Source: a bacterium
GTDB lineage: Bacteria > Patescibacteriota > Patescibacteriia > UBA10025
Assembly: GCA_021815445.1 (NCBI GenBank)
Contig: JAKAGM010000001.1
Coordinates: forward strand, 531,710 to 595,709
Direction: 5' to 3'
Length of the DNA stretch: 64,000 bases
A model generated the notes under the pieces. It had not been told where the DNA came from. It saw only the letters and a program-made list of their open reading frames with translations, and ran no database searches. Within the stretch, counting starts at the first letter, position 1. Each line of letters starts with the position of its first letter. Positions 1,240-23,398 of the stretch are shown here, piece by piece. A program made the position numbers and the translations under genes.

Positions 1240-1297
1240 AGTGTTGTGTATCTTTTCAGCATGACAGGATACCCCGTATCCAAGCTCCAGTCAAGGC

Positions 1298-2350
1298 CTA
1301 GAGTTCGAGGCGCTCCTTGCTGATCATGACTTTGCCGATGCGGACAAATCTGAACGCAGAAAGGACGCGGTAGACGATAAAAGAGAAAAACTGGATCAGC
1401 GGCTGATAGACAATATCGAATATTTTAAGCACGAAAAAGAGTGAAAGCGCCAGCACCGCCGGCAAAAACTTTTTGTACGGGGCCACATACTTTTCGAGCT
1501 GCTGGTTCACAATTTTTTCCACGATAACTTCCATCCTGTCAGTCCCCGACGCCGTGATGCCGAAGGTGGAGAGAAACTTCGCGCGGGCTTCGTCGGTCAA
1601 CTGCCCCTGCGCGCTGGCTAATCCTTCCTGGATTGATTTCTCTATTTCGGCGGTTCCCGGAAATCCCAGCGTCGTGGTTACCTGCTGTGAAGGTTGGACT
1701 GTCGACTCCCTGATGAACTCATCAAGCGTCATGTCCGGCGAATAGTGGGCGACATAGCGCGGAAGAACTCTGTCCACGGAAACAACGGCAGTCTTTACGA
1801 TACCGCTGAGGAGCCGCTCCGACTCCTGCCGGGTGATAAGGAAGGAATAATAGGTGAATGACACTGAGAGCAGAATGAGCGAAATGGCTATGCCCAATCC
1901 TGCCGGAATCACTTGGCTGACTTTGAAGCTGATGCGAGTCTCCATATCACTCCGGATATTCTTGCGCCAGAGAATGAAAGCCAAAATCATAGCTATAATG
2001 GCGATCATGTTCGAAAGGCTCACGGGGAAAAAAGCGACATGGCTCAGGGCTCCGACAGCCACGATGACGTAAAAAACCAGACTTCGCTGGATAAGCAATG
2101 CTGTCAGACCCACGACGGCAAACATGAGCGCAAAAGCGAACAGAACGAATGCGAACGTCAGGAGCGTGTCGAGACGGAGCGAAAATCCCTCGCCGCTCTG
2201 GAAAATCCTGAAAAACGTAAACCAGAAAAATGCCATCGATGTCACTGTCAGCGCGCTGAGAATGGTAAGTTTATGCAACGGTTGCGGGACCGGTTTTTCT
2301 TTTTGGGCTTGGAGCGCCTGCTCTTCCTGCGTAGGTTTTTCAATTCGCAT
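1298..2350 (-). CDS. Hypothetical integral membrane protein
   Basis: 350 aa ORF with multiple hydrophobic helices at both ends and a soluble central segment; no recognised family. Confidence 0.55.
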   Translation of the reverse strand: MRIEKPTQEEQALQAQKEKPVPQPLHKLTILSALTVTSMAFFWFTFFRIFQSGEGFSLRLDTLLTFAFVLFAFALMFAVVGLTALLIQRSLVFYVIVAVGALSHVAFFPVSLSNMIAIIAMILAFILWRKNIRSDMETRISFKVSQVIPAGLGIAISLILLSVSFTYYSFLITRQESERLLSGIVKTAVVSVDRVLPRYVAHYSPDMTLDEFIRESTVQPSQQVTTTLGFPGTAEIEKSIQEGLASAQGQLTDEARAKFLSTFGITASGTDRMEVIVEKIVNQQLEKYVAPYKKFLPAVLALSLFFVLKIFDIVYQPLIQFFSFIVYRVLSAFRFVRIGKVMISKERLEL

Positions 2351-2548
2351 AAGGATATGTTACTCAGTGTACCATCGCGTCCACCATCAGACAATCATGC
2401 GCAGATCGCATGTTTACCGATTTCTGATTTTGGCAACGTTCTTCCCGATCGGAACAGGTGTGATATCAAACTTCTCTCTATTTAATCAGGTTTATAGGGA
2501 CTTTCTTGAAGCTAGGGAAGTTATTCCCAGCTTATCCACTCTGCGGTC

Positions 2549-2577
2549 TTGACCGGTTTTTCCAGTAAGAGTAGCAT
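2549..2577 (+). promoter_or_regulatory. Sigma70-like promoter (TTGACC-17nt-TAGCAT) in front of a GC-rich non-coding stretch
   Basis: Hexamers read directly, 17 nt spacer; no convincing ORF downstream. Confidence 0.35.
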
Positions 2578-3068
2578 GCTCATTACGTCTTTACGTTCTT
2601 TCCATTCCACGAACTTTGTCGGTGACTATTACCGGCTCGATGCTCACAATGGATGGGGGTGAGAGACTTCTCTCGATCAAACTCTCCGTGAGTTATGACG
2701 CGACAACGTCGCACCCTTTCAAGTCGGAACACCTCGGAAACTTTGACGTTTCCGTGACTCAGGTAGTCGGACCTTTATATGGGAGGCCTGACTGCTGGAA
2801 CATTTCCGGCGTCATCTACTGAGCTCGAGAAAGCGCGATTGCATTTGATGCGGGGATTTGGCCGGGAGGAATCCAGGCCGCAGCCTCCGTGCTGACCCCC
2901 AAGGACCTTACGGTCCGCCCTTGCCCATTGCGGGCAACTGTACCCATCGCCCCAGGGCGATGATATCTGCACTTTGCGCCAGGTTTCCCGACACGGCCCC
3001 AAGATCCTTTGATGACACACCTCCTCATTGAATCGCGGGGCTGTTTTTCTTTGGGTGAAAAAACGCTC

Positions 3069-3096
3069 TTGACTTCATCTGACAGGGCATTATACT
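3069..3096 (+). promoter_or_regulatory. Sigma70-like promoter (TTGACT-16nt-TATACT) for a candidate small RNA
   Basis: Near-consensus -35 and -10 hexamers; about 165 nt downstream is a strong intrinsic terminator. Confidence 0.5.
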
Positions 3097-3102
3097 ATCG
3101 AC

Positions 3103-3271
3103 GTGTTCTTCGGATACTACCCGGCTGGGCAATGAATTCGGGGATTCATCCCACCCGGCGCTACGCGCAATGCTTCTCCGCTTACAAGGAAGGCGAGGAC
3201 GACCAGAGTCCAAAACGGAGTTGCGCACGTAGCAGGGCTCGGCAAATGATACTGCGCCGAGCCTGTTTTTT
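3103..3271 (+). ncRNA. Candidate small non-coding RNA, about 170 nt, identity unknown
   Basis: Bounded by promoter 3069-3096 and terminator 3237-3271; no ORF with an RBS fits inside; convergent with DUF3467 gene. Confidence 0.35.
3237..3271 (+). terminator. Rho-independent terminator (GCTCGGC...GCCGAGC stem plus T6)
   Basis: Perfect 7 bp GC-rich stem followed by TGTTTTTT. Confidence 0.6.
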
Positions 3272-3279
3272 ATATCCCG

Positions 3280-3585
3280 TTATCCGTGGAACCCGATCTC
3301 ACTATTCATCGGGGCCTTTGCGACCTCGATGGTCCCGAAGTTCTTTTCATATTTCTCTATATTATCTTTGAGCGCGCCGAGGACCCGCTTCATATGGCCC
3401 GGCGAGAGGATCACCCGCGCATTGACGATGCCCGCGCGCTGGAGCGGATAGACATTCATAAAATCGAGGACGAATTCCTCCTTGGAATGCGCCACTGACA
3501 TCATGTTCGCATAGATGCCTTTCATCGTGGCGTCGTCTATCTTAATTTGTATCTGCTGCCCTTCGGGGGCTTGCTGTCCGTTCAT
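3280..3585 (-). CDS. DUF3467 family protein
   Basis: About 100 aa; conserved EFVLDF...ILSP.H.KR...AL..N..KYE..FG core typical of DUF3467. Confidence 0.75.
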   Translation of the reverse strand: MNGQQAPEGQQIQIKIDDATMKGIYANMMSVAHSKEEFVLDFMNVYPLQRAGIVNARVILSPGHMKRVLGALKDNIEKYEKNFGTIEVAKAPMNSEIGFHG

Positions 3586-3702
3586 AGTGCGTTGGGATTA
3601 GTGGATAAATGTTAATAATAAACTGCATATTGACATTGGCACCTCATATGCGTAAGCTGTGGTTAATAACATCGCACAAACAGGGAAACGAGGAGGAAGT
3701 CC

Positions 3703-3942
3703 ATGAGGATTTTCATTACAGATGTTGAGGTGTTGGGGACAGAGTTGATAGTCCGCTCAAATTTACGGAGATGGGCGTATCATCTCTCAGACGTCATTTC
3801 CGGCGTGCTTTCTATCGAAGAGATCGTCGAGGATAGCGAGTCCGAGGAATTGATCGTCACGGCAGATGGCGTTAAACTCCGTCTCTATACTTGGAGACAG
3901 GCTGCCCTCGGCGAACGGTCCAAATCCTGCCTCGCCGCGTAG
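3703..3942 (+). CDS. Hypothetical small protein (79 aa)
   Basis: AGGAGGA RBS 7 nt upstream of ATG; followed by terminator at 3973-4004. Confidence 0.5.
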   Translation: MRIFITDVEVLGTELIVRSNLRRWAYHLSDVISGVLSIEEIVEDSESEELIVTADGVKLRLYTWRQAALGERSKSCLAA

Positions 3943-3972
3943 GTCTGACCGACTAACGCAATGTTCCTGCCC

Positions 3973-4004
3973 CCTGCCGCCCCGTTTGACGGCAGGTTTT
4001 TTTA
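3973..4004 (+). terminator. Rho-independent terminator (CCTGCCG...CGGCAGG plus T8)
   Basis: 7 bp stem followed by TTTTTTTT. Confidence 0.6.
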
Positions 4005-4111
4005 TTCATGAGCGCTTGCACATCTTAGTAGTACATGGTAAAGATGACAATGAGTATACGTTAAACGAAAGTAATGCACAATTGTTCTGTCACATGCGGA
4101 GGGAGGGAAGT

Positions 4112-4183
4112 ATGCGGTTCGAGATAGCAAATTGGTGCTTTGATAACACCCGCGGAATTGTCCTTTTGCATCTGAGGGCCTGA
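4112..4183 (+). CDS. Putative 23 aa peptide with strong RBS (MRFEIANWCFDNTRGIVLLHLRA)
   Basis: GGAGGGAGGGAAG directly upstream of ATG; weak terminator-like hairpin plus T-tract follows. Confidence 0.2.
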   Translation: MRFEIANWCFDNTRGIVLLHLRA

Positions 4184-4243
4184 TTAAGCTTTACGGTCAT
4201 TCCAGGCCCCCGGCACACGCTGACGGGTCTTTTCTTTTTTGCA

Positions 4244-4278
4244 TTGACAAAGAGCAAACAACTGCTAGACTGGCGATA
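4244..4278 (+). promoter_or_regulatory. Sigma70-like promoter (TTGACA-17nt-TAGACT) for the small membrane protein gene
   Basis: Hexamers read directly. Confidence 0.4.
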
Positions 4279-4331
4279 TCTGTTAAGAATTGATGAGGAA
4301 TATAATTGCTCATTCGAGGAGGGGTACTAAA

Positions 4332-4493
4332 ATGGAAACGTTCAAATCGTGGCCTGGATGGGCACAGGCGCTGACGGTTATCGTCGGCATCATTCTCGTC
4401 CTGGCTGCGGTGGGCTATCGCTTCATCGAGCTGATGAAACAGATTCCGTCCGAATCAAAGGACGAATCGGCGCAGAGCTCTGCACGAACCTGA
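4332..4493 (+). CDS. Small membrane protein (53 aa, single TM helix)
   Basis: GAGGAGGGG RBS upstream of METFKSW; hydrophobic helix ALTVIVGIILVLAAVGY; ORF track start at 4290 is probably too early. Confidence 0.45.
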   Translation: METFKSWPGWAQALTVIVGIILVLAAVGYRFIELMKQIPSESKDESAQSSART

Positions 4494-4622
4494 TCTTCAT
4501 CGGTCATTCATCCAGATCGCTGACTCCGCACGATACAACTATGTGGAGTCTTTTCTTATAGTGGTAACCCTGTAGGGGTCAAGCAAGCTTGACCCGATTT
4601 TCTAAAAGTCGAAGCTTTGCCC

Positions 4623-4904
4623 CTACTTCTTTCTCGGCCCGCGATACAGGACTTTAAACTTCAACCGGCTCACGTTCTGGTTCTTTTTCGCCTTTGAACC
4701 ATGTGCGCCGATCGCCCACACGTTAATACCCGCTTTGCCTTTTTTCTCGTCTGTGGACGTGACTGCCACGTCGAATTCAACGAACGAACTTGATGATTTG
4801 CTGTCTGTCGTTATCCAAAAGAGATGATTGCCGGCCTTGTTGGCCGCCTCAATACCCTTGGCAATGTTTGTTAATGTCGTGGTGATAAATTGGTCGAGTT
4901 GCAT
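4623..4904 (-). CDS. Hypothetical protein with trypco2-like (trypsin-co-occurring domain 2) signature
   Basis: 93 aa; VEFDVAVTxT...GKAGINVWAIGA...RLKFKV pattern resembles the trypco2 domain seen in conflict systems; preceded by conserved hairpin-pair leader. Confidence 0.5.
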   Translation of the reverse strand: MQLDQFITTTLTNIAKGIEAANKAGNHLFWITTDSKSSSSFVEFDVAVTSTDEKKGKAGINVWAIGAHGSKAKKNQNVSRLKFKVLYRGPRKK

Positions 4905-4919
4905 AATATTCTAGCTTTC

Positions 4920-4968
4920 GCACCCTAGAGAGGGTGCTCTCCTTGTCATGCCGAACTTGATTCGGCAT
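4920..4968. repeat. Hairpin-pair motif copy A (GCACCC-N6-GGGTGC and ATGCCGAA-CTTGA-TTCGGCAT)
   Basis: Perfect inverted repeats read directly; lies in the 5' leader of the minus-strand gene 4623-4904. Confidence 0.7.
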
Positions 4969-4980
4969 CTTTATCAAGCT

Positions 4981-5178
4981 TTAGTTTCCTAGGAACTTCA
5001 AAGCGCCATAGACCAGGAATATCGGCCAGATGATTGCCTTAAGGAATCCAAGCACACCCGCCCAAAAAGTCGCTGCCACGGAAATATAATAAATCGCGGC
5101 GCCGATGAAACCTAACCCATAGACCGCCTCTCCGCCACGCTTTGTAACATTCACGTCCATCATATATGCCATGTACAT
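4981..5178 (-). CDS. Small hydrophobic membrane protein (65 aa)
   Basis: Two predicted TM helices; tightly packed between island genes. Confidence 0.4.
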   Translation of the reverse strand: MYMAYMMDVNVTKRGGEAVYGLGFIGAAIYYISVAATFWAGVLGFLKAIIWPIFLVYGALKFLGN

Positions 5179-5202
5179 TTAATAATTAGCCTTGTCATGC
5201 CC

Positions 5203-5715
5203 TCATTTTACCCTCCCGAGAAAGTAATCATCAATAGCCCGCACGAGCGCCACGGGTTTGGCGTCGAACGACCATTCTTTCTTTTCCCGCTTGGCGTCGT
5301 TCTCGAGTATTAATTGGAACCTGTTCGACTTGGTGAGGATGCATTTCGGCGGAGTGGCGTGAAAATGCCACGGCGTGCCATCTTGGACGAACTGTTTCAC
5401 CATCTCAAGCGCTTCATGGTCAGCTGGCCCGAAATCCCCCTGTGCCTGCAAGTATGCGCGTCCTTCAAGCTCCTCGCGGAGTTCTTTCGTACTCCGGCAG
5501 TAGATATTCCCCTGCGGCGTCTCAAGCAAAATAATCTCCTTGCCGGTGTCATTCATGAAGCATTCGGGCGAAAGGCAATGATGATGCCACGCCGTGCCCA
5601 TGCGGACGGTCCTTTGCTCAGCGTCGTCGTATTCTACGTATTTTGCGTCTTCGGATATCATATATTCTGTACTTTCTTTCGCACCCTCGAAAGAGTGCTC
5701 TTCTTTATCCACCAT
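5203..5715 (-). CDS. Hypothetical protein with duplicated G-T-x-W-H-x-H ... C motif (WHH-like); likely true start at 5661
   Basis: Internal repeat GTAWHHHCLSPEC and GTPWHFHATPPKC; the first 18 codons overlap a conserved leader hairpin, so the ATG at 5661 is favoured. Confidence 0.5.
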   Translation of the reverse strand: MVDKEEHSFEGAKESTEYMISEDAKYVEYDDAEQRTVRMGTAWHHHCLSPECFMNDTGKEIILLETPQGNIYCRSTKELREELEGRAYLQAQGDFGPADHEALEMVKQFVQDGTPWHFHATPPKCILTKSNRFQLILENDAKREKKEWSFDAKPVALVRAIDDYFLGRVK

Positions 5716-5798
5716 CCTGAACTTGATTCAGGATCCCGAATTAAATACCTTGGCAGATTACCTCGGGATGCCGAATCAAGTTCGGCATGGGGACAGCT
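5681..5798. repeat. Hairpin-pair motif copy B (GCACCC hairpin, CCTGAA-CTTGA-TTCAGG, ATGCCGAA-TCAAG-TTCGGCAT)
   Basis: Inverted repeats read directly; same stems as copy A. Confidence 0.7.
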
Positions 5799-5839
5799 AA
5801 TTATCTCCGAGCGTGGCCCGCCGCGGCCGCGCTCGCCTG

Positions 5840-6286
5840 TTAAAGTCCCAGTACTTTCTCCAATATCGGATGTGAAAAATACGCCAGTACATCAAAGTCC
5901 TTATCTGCCAATTCAATCATTTCATGGCCCGGCCGTTCAATAAGTTTGAACCCCGGCTTGTCGAGGTATGCTTTCTTAAACGCCGGGTAATCACTCACCG
6001 TGAAGTCCGCGTCTCCTCGCTCTGGCCGGTTCGGATCCGGTTTCCGTATTTTTACAATTCGCAACGGCCCGGCAACGGTTTCAAACGACTCAACGAGATA
6101 CACGTTACCCATTTTGGTACTCTGAATAACCTTGCCTATTTTCGCAACCATCGCTTCGAGCCTTTGATACTCATCATCTGATTGAGAAAAAATACAGGCA
6201 TAATTCACCGGCGCGTTTTTCTGGTCCGTGTGGAGGTCCTTGAGCTTGCGCGCTTGGGAAACAATGTTCTGTACAATTGAAATCAT
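5840..6286 (-). CDS. Hypothetical protein (148 aa), immediately downstream of SIR2-like gene
   Basis: ORF with ordinary composition; no recognised family. Confidence 0.5.
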   Translation of the reverse strand: MISIVQNIVSQARKLKDLHTDQKNAPVNYACIFSQSDDEYQRLEAMVAKIGKVIQSTKMGNVYLVESFETVAGPLRIVKIRKPDPNRPERGDADFTVSDYPAFKKAYLDKPGFKLIERPGHEMIELADKDFDVLAYFSHPILEKVLGL

Positions 6287-6357
6287 GTTTTTCGTGTTCT
6301 TTCTTTGAATGTTGTATCCTCAGATATCATATGGTTGTTGTTGGGGCATATTTACTT

Positions 6358-7449
6358 TCAAATTTTATTGTAATTTTCTACAAATGTTTTAAAACCATTT
6401 TTAAAAGATGTATTCGATGGATCGAAGAATACCTTCCCTTTTTGGAGTTTTTTTGGATGTCGTTTAATCACTCTTTCCATTATTTCTGTTGCGCCTTCAA
6501 CACTATTGCTCACCACGTGGAGTATCGGGGGTTTCGAGGTTGTATACTTTTCTATCCAGTCATGTATTAGCTCATCATTTGCTTGATAGCCAATCAAGAA
6601 TATCTGACTAACATTTGGAAAGAGTGTTTTAGCTCCCTCTTCTATTTTTTTACCTAACTCGGGAATATGTGAATAAATTTTTTCGGATAGTGGGAGAAAT
6701 ATTAACGGCTGGAAGTAATCCCATCCAAAATCTTGGGAATATATTGAGTCTCGCTTTTGTAAAAAGTTATGACCAGGATCGTAATATTTATAATCAGTTA
6801 GAGCCAGCCCACTACCCTTAAATAGATTAACTGAGGCAAACCGATATCTATTTTGCCAGTCATTATCGGCGCTTTTACCTGGAATGCCACCATCTTCTTG
6901 TCTTTTCTGACCGAGCCAGTTAACTGATCCGTGCGGCTTTAGTATTTTTTGCGTTATGTATGAATCGACATTGTCTAATGGCCTGCTCCAAACTTTAGTA
7001 AAAGCAATATCAAACAGGGTGTCATAATTAAAATTAATGAACGCATGGTGAATGTCTTTCTGCGTTTCTTCGCGAAGTATTATTAAGAGCTTTTTATAAA
7101 GGCTATTATTCCCTGGATGTGTCGAAATCGTTTGAAACATCCAACGTAAGTAATGTGCAAACTTTCCAAGGTCGCCTCTGAGAGAGATCGCGGCCTCCGC
7201 GGTATATCCCTCTCCACCTTGATTTGAGTACTTCCATAATTCACTTAGCCAATCTTCTAAACTACGATCTTTTTTGGTTCTTTCAAATGTGGCACGAAGG
7301 TAGTTAATATCAAGGCTAAGCTCCTCGGCATATTCTTCATAAACAGAATTTAATAATTCATTTGCAAGAGGGGCCTGATATTTATTGTTATCTACATTTT
7401 TATTTGTAGATCCTCTAGAGGCACCCGCACCGAAGATAAAGAGTTTCAT
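6358..7449 (-). CDS. SIR2-like domain protein (SIR2_2 / defence-associated sirtuin family), putative NAD+-consuming effector
   Basis: N-terminal FIFGAGASRG Rossmann motif, NYDTLFD (catalytic Asn) and KPHGSVNW (catalytic His), third strand IFLIGYQANDE; gene is AT-rich (about 38% GC) against 50-55% surroundings. Confidence 0.8.
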   Translation of the reverse strand: MKLFIFGAGASRGSTNKNVDNNKYQAPLANELLNSVYEEYAEELSLDINYLRATFERTKKDRSLEDWLSELWKYSNQGGEGYTAEAAISLRGDLGKFAHYLRWMFQTISTHPGNNSLYKKLLIILREETQKDIHHAFINFNYDTLFDIAFTKVWSRPLDNVDSYITQKILKPHGSVNWLGQKRQEDGGIPGKSADNDWQNRYRFASVNLFKGSGLALTDYKYYDPGHNFLQKRDSIYSQDFGWDYFQPLIFLPLSEKIYSHIPELGKKIEEGAKTLFPNVSQIFLIGYQANDELIHDWIEKYTTSKPPILHVVSNSVEGATEIMERVIKRHPKKLQKGKVFFDPSNTSFKNGFKTFVENYNKI

Positions 7450-7492
7450 AATTACTACCGCCCCCGAGTTTTCCCGGAGGCGTTTTAATTAC

Positions 7493-10691: not shown

Positions 10692-11222
10692 TTATTCAGC
10701 TATTTTGACCTTTGCCGCCTGGAGGGTTTTGCCGTGGTATATGTAGCCGGGCTGTATTTCCTCGAGAATCTCCCCGTGCTCCTTGCCTTCAATCTTTTCC
10801 TTTGCCACCGCTTCATGGAGCTCAGGGTCAAATGTTTTTCCGGCTGTCTCTATCTCGTGGATATTGATGTTTGAAAGCAGCGTCTTGAATTCGGTGGCGA
10901 TATGCTCTATACCTTTCATCCACTGGTGCGACTTCTGCTCCTGCGGGGCGTGCTTCAGCGCGAGCTTCAGGTGGTTATAGATGGGTAGCAGTTCGATAAT
11001 AAGCGCCGCATTGGCAAACTGGACAATCTCCTGCTCCCGTTTCGCGGAATCTTTCTTGAGATTCAGGTAATCGGCTTTCGCCCGCTTCCAACCGTTCAGA
11101 TATTCTTCCGCAATCTTTTTCGCTTTTACGAGTTCATCAGTTGGACGCTCGGGCTTCTTCGGGGCGTCGTGAACTTTTTCGGGTTGAGCTGGAGCCGGCT
11201 TGGGCTGGACGTCTTCAGGCAT
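10692..11222 (-). CDS. grpE: Nucleotide exchange factor GrpE
   Basis: GrpE coiled-coil and C-terminal beta domain; overlaps hrcA stop. Confidence 0.85.
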   Translation of the reverse strand: MPEDVQPKPAPAQPEKVHDAPKKPERPTDELVKAKKIAEEYLNGWKRAKADYLNLKKDSAKREQEIVQFANAALIIELLPIYNHLKLALKHAPQEQKSHQWMKGIEHIATEFKTLLSNINIHEIETAGKTFDPELHEAVAKEKIEGKEHGEILEEIQPGYIYHGKTLQAAKVKIAE

Positions 11223-11934
11223 GGGGGTTCTGTTGTGAAGTTTCTAAAAGCTCCTGGGCAAACCTGAGACGGCATGAGTTCGCCGCGTAATCCATCCGCA
11301 TGGGTCCCACAATAGCCATCACAGAGTTTTTTCCGTCATGAGTATACTGCATCATCATGGTACCGCATTCTTTGCCAAACGGATTTTCGCTCCCGATCAG
11401 CGTTTCGATTTCACGTTTCACATTTGGGAAAATATCGTGGACAATGTCATCGAGGTGGTCGATGACTTCTGTGATATGCGAAATGATATTGAAGTCCCGG
11501 AACTCCGGCTGAGAAAAAAGACATGAGATGCCGGTGTAATAAATGTCATCGGGTGAAAAAGCCACGACGACGGCCTCCTGTGAAAGCTCGGCAAGCGCTT
11601 TTGCCAGCCGTTTTGTCTTGGCTTCATAGTCCGGTGCATCGGCAACGGCATCGGTAAGAGCGCCTTTCTCTTTTGTCGCTAACTCTTTTTCATGGACGAG
11701 ATTATCGAGATAATACTTCCAGCCCTTTTCGGTGGGAATTCTGCCAGCTGAGGTATATTGGTGGGTTAAATATCCCTCTTTTTCAAGCTCCATCATGTCG
11801 TTACGAACGGTGGCCGGAGATACACCAAGCTGGTACTTATCCACAAGCAGCTTAGACCCTACTGCGCCGCAGTTCCTGATGTGTTCATTGATTATTGCGC
11901 TAAATAAAGCGATTTTTCTGTCATTCGTACTCAT
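11215..11934 (-). CDS. hrcA: Heat-inducible transcription repressor HrcA
   Basis: N-terminal winged-helix (SKLLVDKYQLGVSPATVRNDMMELEKEGYL), HrcA C-terminal domain; CIRCE immediately upstream. Confidence 0.85.
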   Translation of the reverse strand: MSTNDRKIALFSAIINEHIRNCGAVGSKLLVDKYQLGVSPATVRNDMMELEKEGYLTHQYTSAGRIPTEKGWKYYLDNLVHEKELATKEKGALTDAVADAPDYEAKTKRLAKALAELSQEAVVVAFSPDDIYYTGISCLFSQPEFRDFNIISHITEVIDHLDDIVHDIFPNVKREIETLIGSENPFGKECGTMMMQYTHDGKNSVMAIVGPMRMDYAANSCRLRFAQELLETSQQNPHA

Positions 11935-11966: not shown

Positions 11967-11993
11967 TTAGCACTCTATGGTCAAGAGTGCTAA
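11967..11993 (-). promoter_or_regulatory. CIRCE operator (TTAGCACTC-N9-GAGTGCTAA), HrcA binding site
   Basis: Perfect match to CIRCE consensus, located 33 nt upstream of hrcA start. Confidence 0.85.
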
Positions 11994-14466: not shown

Positions 14467-16422
14467 TTACTCCACAACCACCGCACCCCTTTGAAGCAGA
14501 GACCAGTTCGCCTCAAAGGCCGACGTGGTAAAGTACCTCTCGCCGGACAAAGGGTCAAGGGTGATAATTCGTGAGGGATTGTCGGCCGACCCGATGAACC
14601 CGATAACGACCCGGGCGTGTTCGCCGACTATGGCGATAATACTTTGGCCGTCTTTTGTTTTCCAATCGGCGCGCCGGCCTGACGATGCGTTGCCCCAGAC
14701 GATAACAGGGTTGCCCTTTTGGATTTCTTTGGTGAGATCCTGGACGGTGCCGTTGGTAAAATACCGTGTGCTGCGATACAACGCCCCGACACGCGCTATG
14801 GGCTCCCAATACACTCCGTAGCCCGTCGTCACCTGCTTGCCGTAGTAGTCGCCCACGAACGCTACGTGCGGATTCCCCCACACGCCGTCCTTATGCGGAG
14901 TGGTATCAAAGCCGATTTGATCAATCAGCGCGGATTCCGATACATTCACCCCTTTGTAACGGAGCGCCATGGTAAGCGCCGCGGCTTCACAGGAGAGCGG
15001 GCGTTCCTGCCGGTGAAAAGTGGCGGCGAGCTTGGTCTGGGAAAGCTCGGTGGAAAAAGATGCGCTAAACTCTTTGTTTGAATCGAGACCGTCGACACTC
15101 TTGACGCCTTTTGCAATTTTCACCGCATACGAGCTGTTATACGCGAGCGCGTTGTCGGGCTTGAACAGCATCGTGTTTCCGTTCCATGAGATTTTGCCAC
15201 TGACTGCCGGCGAAAAAGAAAAAACTTTTTCGGCAGACGCGTGGTTCACGTCCTGGTTAAAGGTAACCTCAACGGTGCTTGAGACACCTGCGCCTGTTGA
15301 ACTGTCGCCGGGTGAGAAATGGTTGACGGTAACATTTCCCAGCGTTGTGAACGTGTAGGGAGCGTCGTTTTCAAAATACCCTCCGGACGCCGTTTTCACC
15401 CCTTTTGGAATTGTAACAGTATACGTCGTGCCAAGCGCCAGCGGGCCGGAGGAATGCGTGAAGGTTTTTTTGTCCGCATCTGCTTTCCATGAACCCGCGA
15501 GCTTGGGATCTATTGTGATGTGTTCAGTAACTGATTTCGCGTCCATGCTCTCGGAAAAAGTAACGGCAATCTTTTCGCCTTTTTTTACGGCATCACCTGT
15601 CGGGGTAAAATCCTTGATGCCCGGCGCCTCCCGGGTCTTCCATGCGCCCGTGAATGCCTGCGCCGGATCGCTCGCATGGACTACAGTCTGTGTCCCCACA
15701 AAATATTGGACATTCTTGCGAAAAATTGTGAGCGTATACTCAGTCCCCTGATGCAGAGGTTCATTGGGCGTTACCGTGTATTGAGTTTTTTCGGCATTCA
15801 GCGTGGCAGCAGCCTCGACTGCCGGATCAAAAACAAAGTCGAACGAAGCAAGCTGGTCATTGGCCACGTCGAGAGCCACGGCCCACGAGGCATCCGGACG
15901 CAGTATATCAGTCTGCGCAGGAGTTACTTCTTTCACCGACGGCACCGGCGGGGTCAAAAGGGTAAACTCAATATTCTGGCTTTTTCCCTGCGCGGTTAAT
16001 ACGTTCCGTACTCCCGCGAGATGTACTTTATACTCGGTGCCCGGCGCAAAAGACACTATCGGCGTGAAGGTCAGCGTTCGCGCCAGGTGCGTAGAATAAG
16101 CAAAATTTTCATACGTCCAGTTGCCCGCAACTTCAGGTTCGATGGTAGCGACAATTTTTCTGTTCACAGGCCGGTCAAAAGCAATGCGGATGGAGGCCTG
16201 CGGTGAGACATATGTGCCAAGGGTATCATACGTAGCGGCATGGGAGGGCGGTAAAGAGATAAATATTAATACCCCTAGAACAAAAACGAGCGCAACATTT
16301 AAACGATAAAATGTTCCGGAATGTTTACGTGGCTTCTTTTCTCCCAATGGATTTTCCATGGGCAATGATGATTCAGCTTTTATTTTCGTCATTATTATAG
16401 CATAAAAACAGGAAAAAATCAA
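14467..16422 (-). CDS. Secreted multi-Ig-like repeat protein with C-terminal C39-like cysteine peptidase domain
   Basis: N-terminal TM anchor, several Ig/Big-like repeats, C-terminal LSCEAAALTMAL ... HARVVIGF peptidase-like domain. Confidence 0.6.
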   Translation of the reverse strand: MIFSCFYAIIMTKIKAESSLPMENPLGEKKPRKHSGTFYRLNVALVFVLGVLIFISLPPSHAATYDTLGTYVSPQASIRIAFDRPVNRKIVATIEPEVAGNWTYENFAYSTHLARTLTFTPIVSFAPGTEYKVHLAGVRNVLTAQGKSQNIEFTLLTPPVPSVKEVTPAQTDILRPDASWAVALDVANDQLASFDFVFDPAVEAAATLNAEKTQYTVTPNEPLHQGTEYTLTIFRKNVQYFVGTQTVVHASDPAQAFTGAWKTREAPGIKDFTPTGDAVKKGEKIAVTFSESMDAKSVTEHITIDPKLAGSWKADADKKTFTHSSGPLALGTTYTVTIPKGVKTASGGYFENDAPYTFTTLGNVTVNHFSPGDSSTGAGVSSTVEVTFNQDVNHASAEKVFSFSPAVSGKISWNGNTMLFKPDNALAYNSSYAVKIAKGVKSVDGLDSNKEFSASFSTELSQTKLAATFHRQERPLSCEAAALTMALRYKGVNVSESALIDQIGFDTTPHKDGVWGNPHVAFVGDYYGKQVTTGYGVYWEPIARVGALYRSTRYFTNGTVQDLTKEIQKGNPVIVWGNASSGRRADWKTKDGQSIIAIVGEHARVVIGFIGSADNPSRIITLDPLSGERYFTTSAFEANWSLLQRGAVVVE

Positions 16423-16440
16423 CTTAACCTGGCTGCTGTC

Positions 16441-16537
16441 ATCCTGAATTTATTTCAGGATCTTAACAAAGATTGTAAAGATGCTGAATCGGGTTCAGCA
16501 TGACAAACGCGGCGCGCACCCACAGCAGCGGGGTGCG
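16441..16537. repeat. Hairpin-pair motif copy C (ATCCTGAA-N5-TTCAGGAT, ATGCTGAA-TCGGG-TTCAGCAT, GACAA, CGCACCC-N8-GGGTGCG)
   Basis: Same architecture as copies A and B; between peptidase gene start and tgt stop. Confidence 0.65.
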
Positions 16538-16584
16538 TATGTTATTACTCTCCAGCGTAGGCAGCTGCGCCTGCGCTGCGTTTT

Positions 16585-17721
16585 TTATATTTTCCCCCTC
16601 CTAATCCCCTCCCGTATCTTCGCCACGAACGCATTGAAGAAAGACAGGTTATGGAACGTCAATAAACGCAGGGGTGTCATTTCTTTTGCCCGCAGTAAAT
16701 GGGTAATGTAACCTCGTGAATATGTTTGGCACACTTCGCACGCGCAACGAGGGTCAAGCGGTTTCCTGTCGCTTAAAAAAATATTTTTGCGCATATCCAG
16801 CTGTCCCGCCGACGTGAAGGCAACACCGTGCCGTGCAAAGTGCGTAGGGACGATGCAATCGAACGTGTCCACGCCCGCTTGAATGATGTTTGGGATATCC
16901 TCGAGGTAGCCGATGCCAAGTAAATGCCGCGGTTTGTTTTCCGGCAATGCCGCCGTCACCCAGCGAATCATCCGTACCATCGTCGCTTTGTCACTGCCGA
17001 ACTCTCCGCCGATCCCGTACCCGGGGAAAGGAAGCGAACCGATATACCGTGCGCTTTGCTCACGCAGGTCTCTGTATCGCCCGCCCTGGACTATGCCGAA
17101 TAGCGCCTGCGCACCCTTGTGAACCCGCAGACACTCTTCCGCCCAGCGGTGGGTGAGCTTCACCGATTTCTTCACATAGGCCTTGCTCGCCACCGGCGGA
17201 GGACATTCATCGAAGGCGAATATGATATCGGCGCCCAGGGCCTCTTGGATGCGCATGGATTCTTTCGGGCCTATGAAAAGCTTTTTGCCGTCGACGACGG
17301 ATCGGAAATGCACTCCTTCCTCGGTAATCTTCAGAAACTTCGGCTGGGCGGCGACATGGACCGACTCGGTATGCCCTTCTTTCAGCTGCTTTCCGATGTT
17401 GAAATCGAACCCAAACCCGAGACTGAACACTTGAAAACCGCCGGAATCGGTCATTATGGGCCTATCCCAGTGCATAAACCGGTTCAACCCGCCGTGCCGC
17501 TTCACAACCTTTTCGCCCGGCTTCAAGTGCAAGTGATAGGTGTTTGCGATCACGACCTGGCTTCCGGTCCTTTGTACCTCCTCACCTGTCAGCGTCTTGA
17601 CGACTGCCTGCGTGGCAACGGGAACAAGGGCGGGGGTCTCAATGACTCCGTGCGGCGTATGCAACAATCCCGCGCGCGCTCGGCTTTTTTGAGACTTCTT
17701 TTGAACGGTAAATTTAAACAT
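16585..17721 (-). CDS. tgt: Queuine tRNA-ribosyltransferase
   Basis: TGT signatures incl. zinc site CxCxxC...H and GIGY/DxFDC motifs. Confidence 0.9.
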   Translation of the reverse strand: MFKFTVQKKSQKSRARAGLLHTPHGVIETPALVPVATQAVVKTLTGEEVQRTGSQVVIANTYHLHLKPGEKVVKRHGGLNRFMHWDRPIMTDSGGFQVFSLGFGFDFNIGKQLKEGHTESVHVAAQPKFLKITEEGVHFRSVVDGKKLFIGPKESMRIQEALGADIIFAFDECPPPVASKAYVKKSVKLTHRWAEECLRVHKGAQALFGIVQGGRYRDLREQSARYIGSLPFPGYGIGGEFGSDKATMVRMIRWVTAALPENKPRHLLGIGYLEDIPNIIQAGVDTFDCIVPTHFARHGVAFTSAGQLDMRKNIFLSDRKPLDPRCACEVCQTYSRGYITHLLRAKEMTPLRLLTFHNLSFFNAFVAKIREGIRRGKI

Positions 17722-22633: not shown

Positions 22634-23398
22634 TTAGGCAACAGCAAAAATAATGCCGAGAAATTTTTCGAGAACACTGCTGGCGCCGCCCACTATAACG
22701 CCGCAAATAGACTCGTTGTCCACATAGCTGGATACGTTGGACTCATCGACGCTTCCTCCGTACATCATGATAAAGTTCTCGTCCGCAATATGTTGCTGAT
22801 ACAGATCCACAAGCGCGCTGCGGATCACCTCAGTCGTCTCCCGCGCCTCCTTAGGGTCGCATGCTTGGCCGGTACCTATCGCCCAGACGGGTTCATACGC
22901 TATCATGATTTTTGCCTTTTCTGAAGGTACAATCCCGGTGAGCGCCTCCTGAATCTGTTTCATGATAACCACGTCTTTATTGCCCTGCTGACGCTGCTCA
23001 AAGGTTTCCCCGACGCACAGAACCGGCGTTATGCCGGAATCCATGGCATGCCGCACCTTCTTTCGGACAATTTGGTCGGTCTCATGGAGATAAATCCTGC
23101 GCTCCGAATGGCCAATGATTGCATAGCTGCATCCCAGCTCGAGGAGCATCGGACCCGACACTTCTCCCGTGTACGCGCCTCGTGGCTCCCAAAATATATT
23201 TTGAGCCGCGAGCTTTATCGGGCTTCCCTCGATAAGCTTCCCGACGGCGTCGAGATACGGCATTGACGGGGCGACAGCCACGGTAACGCCGGATCCGAGA
23301 TCATGGAGCGAATTTTTTAACCCGACCGCAAGATCGCCGGTTTTTTTCCGGTTGAGATTCATTTTCCAGTTCCCTAATATGAGCGGCGGTGTTGCCAT
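22634..23398 (-). CDS. tpiA: Triosephosphate isomerase
   Basis: GNWKMN, AYEPVWAIGTG motifs. Confidence 0.9.
   Translation of the reverse strand: MATPPLILGNWKMNLNRKKTGDLAVGLKNSLHDLGSGVTVAVAPSMPYLDAVGKLIEGSPIKLAAQNIFWEPRGAYTGEVSGPMLLELGCSYAIIGHSERRIYLHETDQIVRKKVRHAMDSGITPVLCVGETFEQRQQGNKDVVIMKQIQEALTGIVPSEKAKIMIAYEPVWAIGTGQACDPKEARETTEVIRSALVDLYQQHIADENFIMMYGGSVDESNVSSYVDNESICGVIVGGASSVLEKFLGIIFAVA

Follow-up and report, generated by a model that had tools for sequence, protein, structure and literature searches.

The question raised by this locus is what a set of paired palindromes represents in the spacers around two small genes of a patescibacterial heat-shock operon, and whether it forms a leader dedicated to them. 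The stretch analyzed, referred to below as the window, comprises 64,000 nucleotides of contig JAKAGM010000001.1 (assembly GCA_021815445.1, positions 531,710 to 595,709 of the forward strand). In an earlier note, the palindromes were read as a hairpin-pair leader common to two island genes, with a third copy next to tgt, and dimeric transcription-factor operators, a small structured RNA element and a repeat resembling a miniature inverted-repeat transposable element (MITE) were offered as explanations. From the comparisons made here, the 8-5-8 palindromes (8-nt arms, 5-nt loop) are very probably CGTC-tagged repetitive extragenic palindromes (REPs), represented in the window by one singleton and two HH (tags-outside) heterodimers. 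The MITE-like alternative was essentially right, in that the palindromes would belong to a described repeat family. A second, GC-rich hairpin accompanies them; at the two island loci it is a 24-nt element, hpB (AGAGCACCCTYTCKAGGGTGCGAA; GCACCC-N6-GGGTGC), which is, on sequence grounds, separate from and unrelated to the REPs.

All of the palindromes described previously were recovered. The window contains five perfect copies of ATSCYGAA-N5-TTCRGSAT, at 4948-4968, 5714-5734, 5768-5788, 16441-16461 and 16481-16501; they lie at three loci, all within 17 kb, with none elsewhere in the 64 kb, and make up one third of the perfect hairpins of the window with a stem of at least 8 bp. When the pattern ATSCYGAANNNNNTTCRGSAT was searched with up to two mismatches, the five exact copies and one two-mismatch match, within coding sequence at 22946, were found, against a chance expectation of 0.30 estimated from shuffles; six or more matches were obtained in 0 of 100 shuffles. 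The flanks give each palindrome an orientation, the unit being (C/T)GTC-AT-SCYGAA-YTYGW-TTCRGS-AT-C. A covariance model, as the earlier note had suggested building, was constructed in oriented form (R1) and yielded exactly five matches over the 64 kb, each scoring 32-48 bits in its own orientation against 16-18 in reverse; it added no copy within the window, and further copies were found across other genomes, as described below. Locus 1 is a singleton, and loci 2 and 3 are inverted doublets with their GTC ends outside, the pairs 5714/5768 and 16441/16481 being inverted copies that include the flanks, that is, doublets and not tandem sites. The oriented units, rightward on the + strand and leftward on the - strand, are as follows.

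4943..4973, + strand: CGTC-type REP singleton (locus 1); tag TGTC at 4944-4947, loop CTTGA, tail CTT.
4948-4955 and 4961-4968, + strand: stem of the locus 1 unit, ATGCCGAA/TTCGGCAT; R1 score of the whole unit 45.6 bits versus 16.5 reversed.
5709..5739, + strand: CGTC-type REP, left unit of the locus 2 HH heterodimer; degenerate tag CACC, stem ATCCTGAA/TTCAGGAT, loop CTTGA, tail CCC; R1 score 32.4 bits, outside the training set.
5740..5762, no strand: central part of the locus 2 doublet spacer; the full stem-to-stem spacer, 5735-5767, is 33 nt with complementary ends CCCGA/TCGGG.
5763..5793, - strand: CGTC-type REP, right unit of the locus 2 HH heterodimer; tag CCCC with TGTC displaced by 3 nt (TGTCCCC), stem ATGCCGAA/TTCGGCAT, loop CTTGA (- strand), tail CCC; an exact inverted copy of 4947-4969; R1 score 33.3 bits.
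16436..16466, + strand: CGTC-type REP, left unit of the locus 3 HH heterodimer; tag TGTC at 16437-16440, stem ATCCTGAA/TTCAGGAT, loop TTTAT, tail CTT; R1 score 48.4 bits.
16476..16506, - strand: CGTC-type REP, right unit of the locus 3 HH heterodimer; tag TGTC at 16505-16502, stem ATGCTGAA/TTCAGCAT, loop CCCGA, tail CTT; R1 score 41.0 bits.

Single-strand folds predicted for the three loci have z-scores of -3.4, -6.5 and -7.0. The locus 2 doublet, whose 33-nt arms are 82% complementary, is predicted to form one long hairpin (-57.6 kcal/mol, z -6.5). At locus 3, where the doublet spacer (16462-16480, 19 nt) is near-palindromic, a 149-nt stretch is predicted to fold at -72.2 kcal/mol (z -7.0), with the doublet again as one long hairpin.

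The identification draws on the text of the survey by Di Nocera, De Gregorio and Rocco (2013; BMC Genomics 14:522, PMC3733652). According to that text, CGTC-tagged REPs carry an unpaired CGTC tag, often TGTC or CCTC, and a stem of 8 bp (families 1-2) or 9 bp (families 3-4) that almost always begins with complementary A/T; the loop is 4 nt in family 1 and 5 nt in families 2-4, and a 3-nt tail, mostly CCA, follows. They are described as mainly HH dimers, heterodimers predominating in CGTC-2, with spacers of 20-100 bp whose ends are often complementary, and as lying mainly between unidirectional or convergent open reading frames (ORFs), 3' of coding regions, with transposase linkage absent. Proteobacteria, Chlorobi, Bacteroidetes, Spirochaetes and Thermotogae are named as hosts, and Novosphingobium aromaticivorans is named for CGTC-2 (Di Nocera et al., 2013, PMC3733652). 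In the window, the tag is TGTC in three of the five units, all five have a perfect 8-bp stem with AT at its start and end as well as a 5-nt loop (CTTGA in three, TTTAT and CCCGA in one each), and the tails are CTT (three) or CCC (two). Loci 2 and 3 are heterodimers with their tags outside, the spacers are 33 and 19 nt long and have complementary ends, and every locus lies extragenically between co-directional - strand genes, downstream of a stop codon. From the 8-bp stem and 5-nt loop the units are therefore placed in family CGTC-2, a placement made with high confidence under the criteria worded in the survey. In N. aromaticivorans, tCGTC-ATGCTGAA-CATGT-TTCAGCAT-CCA occurs as an HH doublet between two co-directional genes, and the window units share with it a near-identical core (ATGCTGAA...TTCAGCAT) and a short tail starting with C. 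They differ in that their host is a Paceibacteria-like Patescibacteria genome of ~0.88 Mb, outside the groups listed in the text of the 2013 paper, and in that each locus also has a second palindrome on the tag side. No report of REPs in Patescibacteria was found in a literature search.

Membership of a multi-phylum family was seen in pattern scans of viral and genome contigs, each of which returned an arbitrary sample of at least 120 matches that does not estimate abundance. In viral contigs, the pattern CATSCYGAANNNNNTTCRGSATC occurred in up to seven copies per stretch, and the matches listed have mostly GT-CAT...ATC flanks and loops CTTGT, CTCGT, TTTAT or CTTGA. In genome contigs, the stricter pattern CATSCYGAAYYYRWTTCRGSATC likewise gave at least 120 matches, for a chance estimate of ~9 derived from information content. 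The genome matches listed include six candidate phyla of Patescibacteria (Gracilibacteria, Saccharibacteria, Nomurabacteria, Falkowbacteria, Kerfeldbacteria and Peribacteria), Bacteroidota (Pedobacter, Chitinophaga), Ignavibacteria, Nitrospirota, Melainabacteria (Gastranaerophilales), Sphingomonadaceae, several proteobacterial classes, Treponema, Rickettsiales (Rickettsia) and one Nanoarchaeota bin, and among them an identical 23-mer recurs in more than 15 phyla. The genome to which the window belongs does not appear among the matches listed. By BLAST, the unit was also located on plasmids of sphingomonads, Treponema and Sulfurovum, in spacers between genes. Because no real match to the 8-5-8 unit was found by BLAST in the 50,697 reference phage genomes of INPHARED, the IMG/VR matches do not make it a typical phage feature.

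Pairing in the stem is kept by compensatory change. The search pattern left two variable stem positions free to vary independently in each arm, and stems were perfectly complementary in 155 of the 159 unique genome matches listed, where 25% would be expected. In a covariance-model alignment of 135 distinct sequences, 99.9% of cells were paired and three of the eight stem pairs showed changes on both sides (CG/GC/UA, UA/CG and UA/CG). Among the same 159 matches, the three nucleotides preceding the pattern-fixed C read CGT in 82 and TGT in 58, and the commonest tails, whose first C is fixed by the pattern, were CTC (39), CCA (37) and CTT (31). Many pairs of a + unit followed by a - unit occur in other genomes. 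Arrays of CGTC-2 units, strictly alternating (period ~40 nt) or tandem, were also observed in stretches L183 (1444-1679), L195 (54-281), L187 (45-252) and L216 (1187-2991), and resemble the BIME-2 clusters of Escherichia coli (BIME, bacterial interspersed mosaic element); clusters of CGTC REPs are called rare in the text of the 2013 survey (Di Nocera et al., 2013, PMC3733652). In addition, CGTC-type hairpins number more than 20 in the viral-binned stretches L068/L033 (IMGVR_UViG_3300028845_000195) and L060. They fall into several stem classes (among them ATCCTGAA, ATTCCCGA with its 9-nt loop, ATTCCTGC and ATTGCGAGGGTGC), and they are found on a single strand only, crowded into spacers upstream of ribosome-binding sites.

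The position of the repeats turns over among relatives. In the window, locus 1 lies 12 nt after the stop codon (4981-4983) of a 60/65-aa membrane-protein gene and upstream of a Trypco2 gene (4623-4904), and locus 2 lies 47 nt after the stop of gene 5840-6286; both fall within an inserted group of small genes that separates dnaK from dnaJ. Locus 3 lies 79 nt after the tgt stop, between tgt and a peptidase gene. In the closest relative (Tgt 82% identical), a REP unit lies 62 nt beyond tgt, just where the contig ends, and on a separate contig a REP doublet lies downstream, not upstream, of the orthologue of the 152-aa gene that follows locus 2 in the window. A relative at 48% has nested CGTC-type units upstream of its 152-aa homologue: in L253 (1790-1945), a CTGAACTTGTTTCAG unit is nested in another palindrome (ACTCTGAAT...ATTCAGAGT) ahead of that homologue, and after the nested pair comes a CGTC-type unit whose loop is large and structured. 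No CGTC REPs were found in relatives L251 and L252. In L246 (6401-9665; Tgt 74% identical), tgt is separated from a Big_5/C39 peptidase gene by a 365-aa gene, a 269-aa gene and a Vut_1 gene, and the equivalent interval of the window (16360-16585) contains nothing beyond the REP doublet, the GC hairpin and a terminator. Because its position and presence vary in this way, the repeat is not tied to a given gene or side.

The repeat at locus 2 also bears on gene calling. The earlier suspicion that the first 18 codons of ORF 5203-5715 (170 aa) are non-coding was borne out: all five homologues have 152-155 aa and cover 88-89% of it, and DNA homology with relatives starts at 5662. These lengths and this border support the ATG at 5661 as the true start, in which case the longer ORF, whose spurious ATG at 5715 is overlapped by the left unit, begins inside a REP. 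Gene callers should not place the start of the 152-aa gene there.

The second hairpin has a history of its own. Its two island copies and the hairpin in the corresponding place at locus 3 are these.

4917..4940, - strand: hpB copy 1, AGAGCACCC-TCTCTA-GGGTGCGAA; arms 4920-4925 and 4932-4937; 15 nt upstream of ATG 4904.
5678..5701, - strand: hpB copy 2, AGAGCACTC-TTTCGA-GGGTGCGAA; 19 nt upstream of the true start at 5661.
16514..16538, + strand: GC-rich hairpin CGCACCC-N9-GGGTGCG (arms span 16515-16537), separated by 8 nt from the tag of the right unit.

Some details given previously are corrected by these coordinates: the distance from the second hairpin to ATG 4904 had been put at ~18 nt, the loop at locus 3 is 9 nt with arms CGCACCC/GGGTGCG and not N8, and strands had been mixed, + strand loops being given alongside GACAA and TCTCTA of the - strand. 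On the + strand, copy 1 reads GCACCC-TAGAGA-GGGTGC (4920-4937) and copy 2 reads GCACCC-TCGAAA-GAGTGC (5681-5698), with one mismatch; the C-to-T change in copy 2 leaves a G-U pair on the sense RNA and a C-A mismatch on the other strand. The hairpin at 16514-16538 has GCACCC/GGGTGCG arms as in hpB with another loop and other flanks, and may be a diverged hpB or an unrelated hairpin. The proposed leader common to the two island genes stands as a similarity, and one that extends beyond the hairpins: AGGGTGCGAAAG is exact in both, AGAATAT(T)ATG is common to them, and the direct repeat containing copy 2 has 87% identity to 4915-4944. As a gene-specific leader it does not stand, given the inverted third locus and the cross-phylum spread of the REP unit.

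A metagenome scan for hpB gave ten stretches, equal to six distinct loci, in related Paceibacteria-like genomes, and the core AGAGCACCCTYTCKAGGGTGCGAA is invariant in nine sequences with unrelated flanks. Over its 24 nt, copy 1 is 96% identical to L251 2056-2079, where hpB is found without any CGTC REP, at the 3' end of the 152-aa gene and between convergent genes; in L250 it carries a 41-nt loop insertion and stands ahead of an HD-domain gene (HD_4). The second copy in L262 is a true hpB, and the extra hairpin in L258 is a different GCACCC-armed hairpin. Usually hpB follows ~30 nt after another GC-rich hairpin (hpA), and in L264 (1540-1660) the hpA-spacer-hpB module lies in frame and stop-free within a RAYT-like Y1-transposase ORF, in the loop after the HUH motif; this ORF is also frameshifted upstream. 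Of ten cases, eight have the element sense to a neighboring gene, and the other two have it antisense. No Rfam match was obtained at the hpB loci, and hpB was absent from the viral contigs scanned. Because the GCACCC hairpin is located in the dnaK operon, a comparison with CIRCE, the binding site of HrcA, was also made. The CIRCE consensus is TTAGCACTC-N9-GAGTGCTAA, with a 9-bp spacer; such a site was rejected for hpB, with its 6-nt spacer and GCACCC/GGGTGC arms. A canonical CIRCE (TAGCACTC-N9-GAGTGCTA) is present at 11968-11992, ~35 nt upstream of hrcA (11215-11934, - strand).

Since the arms of hpB do not covary, a sequence-specific partner, protein or nucleic acid, is plausible for it, and the operator idea of the earlier note may in this form apply to the GCACCC hairpin as a possible protein-binding site. 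It is treated here as a REP-like or MITE-like repeat that lacks a tag and belongs to a narrow clade. Four meetings of hpB with a CGTC REP were seen, three of them in the window and the fourth in L250; each time the 5' side of hpB is turned toward the REP tag, 5-13 nt away, and this fixed polarity points to targeted insertion or to a composite unit. In other genomes, no enrichment of GCACC/GGTGC was found on the REP tag side, where a hairpin of any kind occurred in 17% of cases versus 8% at random positions.

The dnaK-dnaJ interval in which both elements lie (window 1240-7492, compared with L250-L253) is hypervariable in its small-gene content among five related genomes. The only recurrent members are the 152-aa gene, a DUF3467 gene and a 350-aa gene, and the variable genes include SIR2-like, Trypco2, HD_4, NUDIX, DUF6941 and RAYT-like ones; by this comparison, the interval is a gene-cassette hotspot inside the heat-shock operon. 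Defense-system and NCBIfam annotation of the island proteins gave only a weak SIR2-like signal, in a 363-aa protein. Just upstream of gene 5840-6286, a 15-codon ORF on the - strand (6283-6330; MISEDTTFKERTRKT) resembles the N-terminus of the 152-aa protein (MISEDAKYVE) and may be the remnant of a paralogous or displaced gene start.

Several known systems resemble the window repeats in part. REPINs and other GTAG-tagged REPs are reportedly mobilized by RAYT tyrosine (HUH Y1) transposases, as Nunvar in 2010 and Bertels and Rainey in 2011 are said to have recognized. The window repeats share with them short tagged palindromes, inverted doublets folding as one hairpin, singletons as remnants and an extragenic location; they differ in their tag (CGTC/TGTC instead of GTAG) and in that the CGTC unit is common to many phyla, whereas REPIN populations are lineage-specific. 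Membership of the REPIN-RAYT system was not borne out: a tblastn search with the RAYT-like protein of L250 gave no match in the window, and no RAYT or Y1 transposase was found in the window or in 240 REP loci. In L250 (3187-4159; Logan SRR22388033), the syntenic dnaK-dnaJ island contains a 141-aa Y1_Tnp/RAYT-like gene and an unrelated 152-aa gene; the two together are flanked by inverted GTAG-tagged REPs (GGCGTAGCT-GCAGAGC-TT-GCTCTGC and a partner), not by CGTC REPs, and the segment probably constitutes a REPtron-like unit in a Patescibacteria genome. The window itself holds a palindrome GTAG-GGGTCAAGC-AA-GCTTGACCC with a degenerate inverted partner ending CCCCTAC (4572-4626), a REP doublet of the GTAG superfamily whose CTAC end provides the TAG stop of the Trypco2 gene (4623-4625), and the island thus holds both REP superfamilies, GTAG and CGTC.

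Within the CGTC superfamily, Neisseria dRS3 is assigned to CGTC-1 and Rickettsia RPE-4/RPE-6 to CGTC-4 in the text of the survey (Di Nocera et al., 2013, PMC3733652). These elements share with the window units the CGTC tag and an AT-initiated stem, and Rickettsia and Rickettsiales are among the genome matches of the window pattern; they differ in having their own stem and loop classes (ATTCCC-type stems; a 4-nt loop or a 9-bp stem). In addition, dRS3 repeats are phage and insertion-sequence (IS) integration targets that border mosaic intergenic arrays, whereas no such role was seen in the window. With E. coli BIMEs there are in common the alternating-orientation doublets and arrays (L183, L195, L216) and the proposed roles as mRNA stabilizers, attenuators or translation modulators near stop codons; BIMEs belong to another sequence family (GTAG-3), and binding of IHF and gyrase is known for E. 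coli alone. PeSL (promoter early stem-loop) cassettes of T4-type phages and integron attC sites are hairpin repeats that border small variable genes in a plastic region. The window differs from them in having no early-promoter consensus, integrase or attC core, and its repeats reach beyond the plastic region, with the third copy at tgt. Compared with MITEs, the doublets have inverted ends, but neither a flanking direct duplication nor a related IS was found.

Other candidates were discarded. An integron attC was rejected, as neither a GTTRRRY/RYYYAAC core nor an R'/R'' core is present; N4-type hairpin promoters and lambda boxB were rejected on stem and loop geometry and on the cross-phylum spread; and a rolling-circle nick site CTTGAT in the loop was rejected, the consensus loop of the family being CTTGT. 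On the sense (-) strand, no T-run follows the REPs or hpB as it would in an intrinsic terminator. Rfam searches gave two tRNAs only over the whole window at the gathering score, and at E values up to 10 both loci matched only miRNA-precursor models, which match any long hairpin. A full-text literature search with the hairpin sequence and its would-be peptides gave no match.

The surroundings of locus 3 include one further structure, placed directly after its module.

16553..16578, + strand: intrinsic-terminator-like hairpin, 10 pairs followed by TTTTTT.

No + strand gene lies upstream of this hairpin. A hydrophobic 21-codon ORF (16539-16604, + strand; MLLLSSVGSCACAAFFIFSPS) starts right after the GC hairpin, runs through the terminator and overlaps the tgt stop; it may be due to chance.

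Against this background, the regulatory explanations can be weighed. An operator for a dimeric factor encoded in or near the island, forming with the GC hairpin a shared regulatory leader for the Trypco2 and 152-aa genes, would account for perfect 8-5-8 inverted repeats upstream of two genes and for the placement of the left locus 3 unit 19 nt ahead of the -35 hexamer in a good sigma-70-like promoter of the peptidase gene; the invariance of the hpB arms across species, with no compensatory change, likewise suits a protein site better than a purely structural hairpin. However, operators have no need for the coordinated arm changes seen in the 8-5-8 unit, and its identical 23-mer is shared, among the matches listed, by more than 15 phyla and by plasmids that have no regulator in common. 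The arrangement in inverted doublets and alternating arrays, the locus 3 inversion and the shifts in position relative to orthologous genes, already in the closest relative, speak against it as well, none of the island proteins tested showed a DNA-binding domain, and copies of hpB are also found between convergent genes, in antisense to flanking genes and within an ORF. An operator is therefore considered extremely improbable. That the hairpin pair is instead an attenuator, thermosensor, processing site or other strand-specific RNA leader, selected to control in cis the island genes that follow it in the heat-shock operon, is suggested by the order REP, hpB, GAAAG and start codon on the sense strand at locus 1, locus 2 and L250, the G-U pair retained only on sense RNA in hpB copy 2, the predominance of sense hpB copies and predicted folds far more stable than those of shuffles. 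This view is nevertheless very unlikely to be correct: locus 3 is inverted relative to both flanking genes, the genes that follow are unrelated (Trypco2, 152-aa, HD_4, Sua5-like and YjeF-like), hpB in L251 stands at a 3' end between convergent genes, no Rfam family matches, and no Shine-Dalgarno sequence is sequestered at a useful distance.

Two further explanations concern single aspects of the data. Locus 3 could be a small RNA gene on the + strand, made up of the REP doublet, the GC hairpin and the terminator, a view suggested by the strong intrinsic terminator at 16553-16578 behind the module with no + strand ORF ahead of it, by the stable fold of the 149-nt stretch (about -72 kcal/mol) and by the frequency of REPs in E. 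coli small RNAs (PMC12306157). We rate this as highly unlikely, because no + strand promoter-like site was found upstream, Rfam gave no match, and the relative with the closest tgt differs there apart from the REP. The idea that REP-plus-hpB modules are recombination junctions of exchangeable cassettes in the dnaK-dnaJ hotspot, in the manner of PeSL or attC, is compatible with REP identity. A segment of ~760 bp with the 152-aa and 65-aa genes lies between direct hpB+REP copies (4915-4969 and 5676-5735), the gene set differs in each of the five related genomes, breaks in DNA homology coincide exactly with gene borders such as 5662, and a 15-codon remnant of the start of the 152-aa gene is found at 6330-6283. 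Even so, no recombinase or integrase was found in the island, L251 and L252 are equally variable without CGTC REPs, an attC-type R'/R'' core is missing, and repeats at gene borders are expected anyway, REPs being intergenic, so that this idea is judged unlikely. A related and more elaborate proposal, to which a small though not negligible chance is given, holds that CGTC REP and hpB form a fixed-polarity composite that marks, and perhaps mediates, cassette gain and loss in the hrcA-grpE-dnaK-dnaJ hotspot, and that the RAYT-like Y1 transposase present at two loci with hpB may use hpB and its usual partner hpA as a substrate.

The identification as CGTC-tagged REPs is itself open to several objections. 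Copy number is known for 64 kb of a genome of ~880 kb, and all five units fall in the first 17 kb; the tag is degenerate in two of the units (CACC, and CCCC with TGTC shifted by 3 nt); the tails, CTT or CCC, differ from the published CCA consensus; and the placement in CGTC-2 follows the text description of the paper and not its consensus figure. Moreover, mobility is suggested by presence and absence between species and not by empty sites with target duplication. The order of REP tag, 5-13 nt and hpB in four of four cases is unexplained by independent insertion, and the two elements may form a composite unit.

As CGTC REPs, the palindromes would be non-autonomous repeats copied into spacers through a single-stranded hairpin intermediate by an enzyme acting in trans. 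Once inserted, they would be transcribed within the polycistronic dnaK-to-dnaJ and tgt-to-peptidase messages, where single units may fold into hairpins and a doublet into one long hairpin. By analogy with the general role proposed for REPs, such hairpins could block 3'-to-5' decay, attenuate read-through and modulate translation of neighboring genes. The two island leaders would be alike for the reason that each has an independent REP copy and a copy of the unrelated hpB. To our knowledge, the copying enzyme of the CGTC REP superfamily has never been identified; the question was raised in 2013 and is still open.

Altogether, the feature is already explained in kind: a known repeat family is met in new copies and in a new host, together with a minor companion element, hpB. 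A false lead is thereby removed, the hairpins being no dedicated leader or operator set for the island genes. Furthermore, the host range of CGTC REPs is extended to Patescibacteria and, among the matches listed, to several other phyla and to uncultivated viral-bin contigs. The small palindromic element hpB had not previously been described, and together with the variable cassette hotspot in the heat-shock operon of this clade it perhaps deserves separate attention. One 23-nt unit persists nearly unchanged across very distant lineages, which sharpens the question of how such repeats are copied without a linked transposase. If the composite, RAYT-substrate proposal were true, the reduced genomes of the candidate phyla radiation (CPR) would provide a tractable case in which the mobilization of untagged and CGTC-tagged palindromes could be followed.

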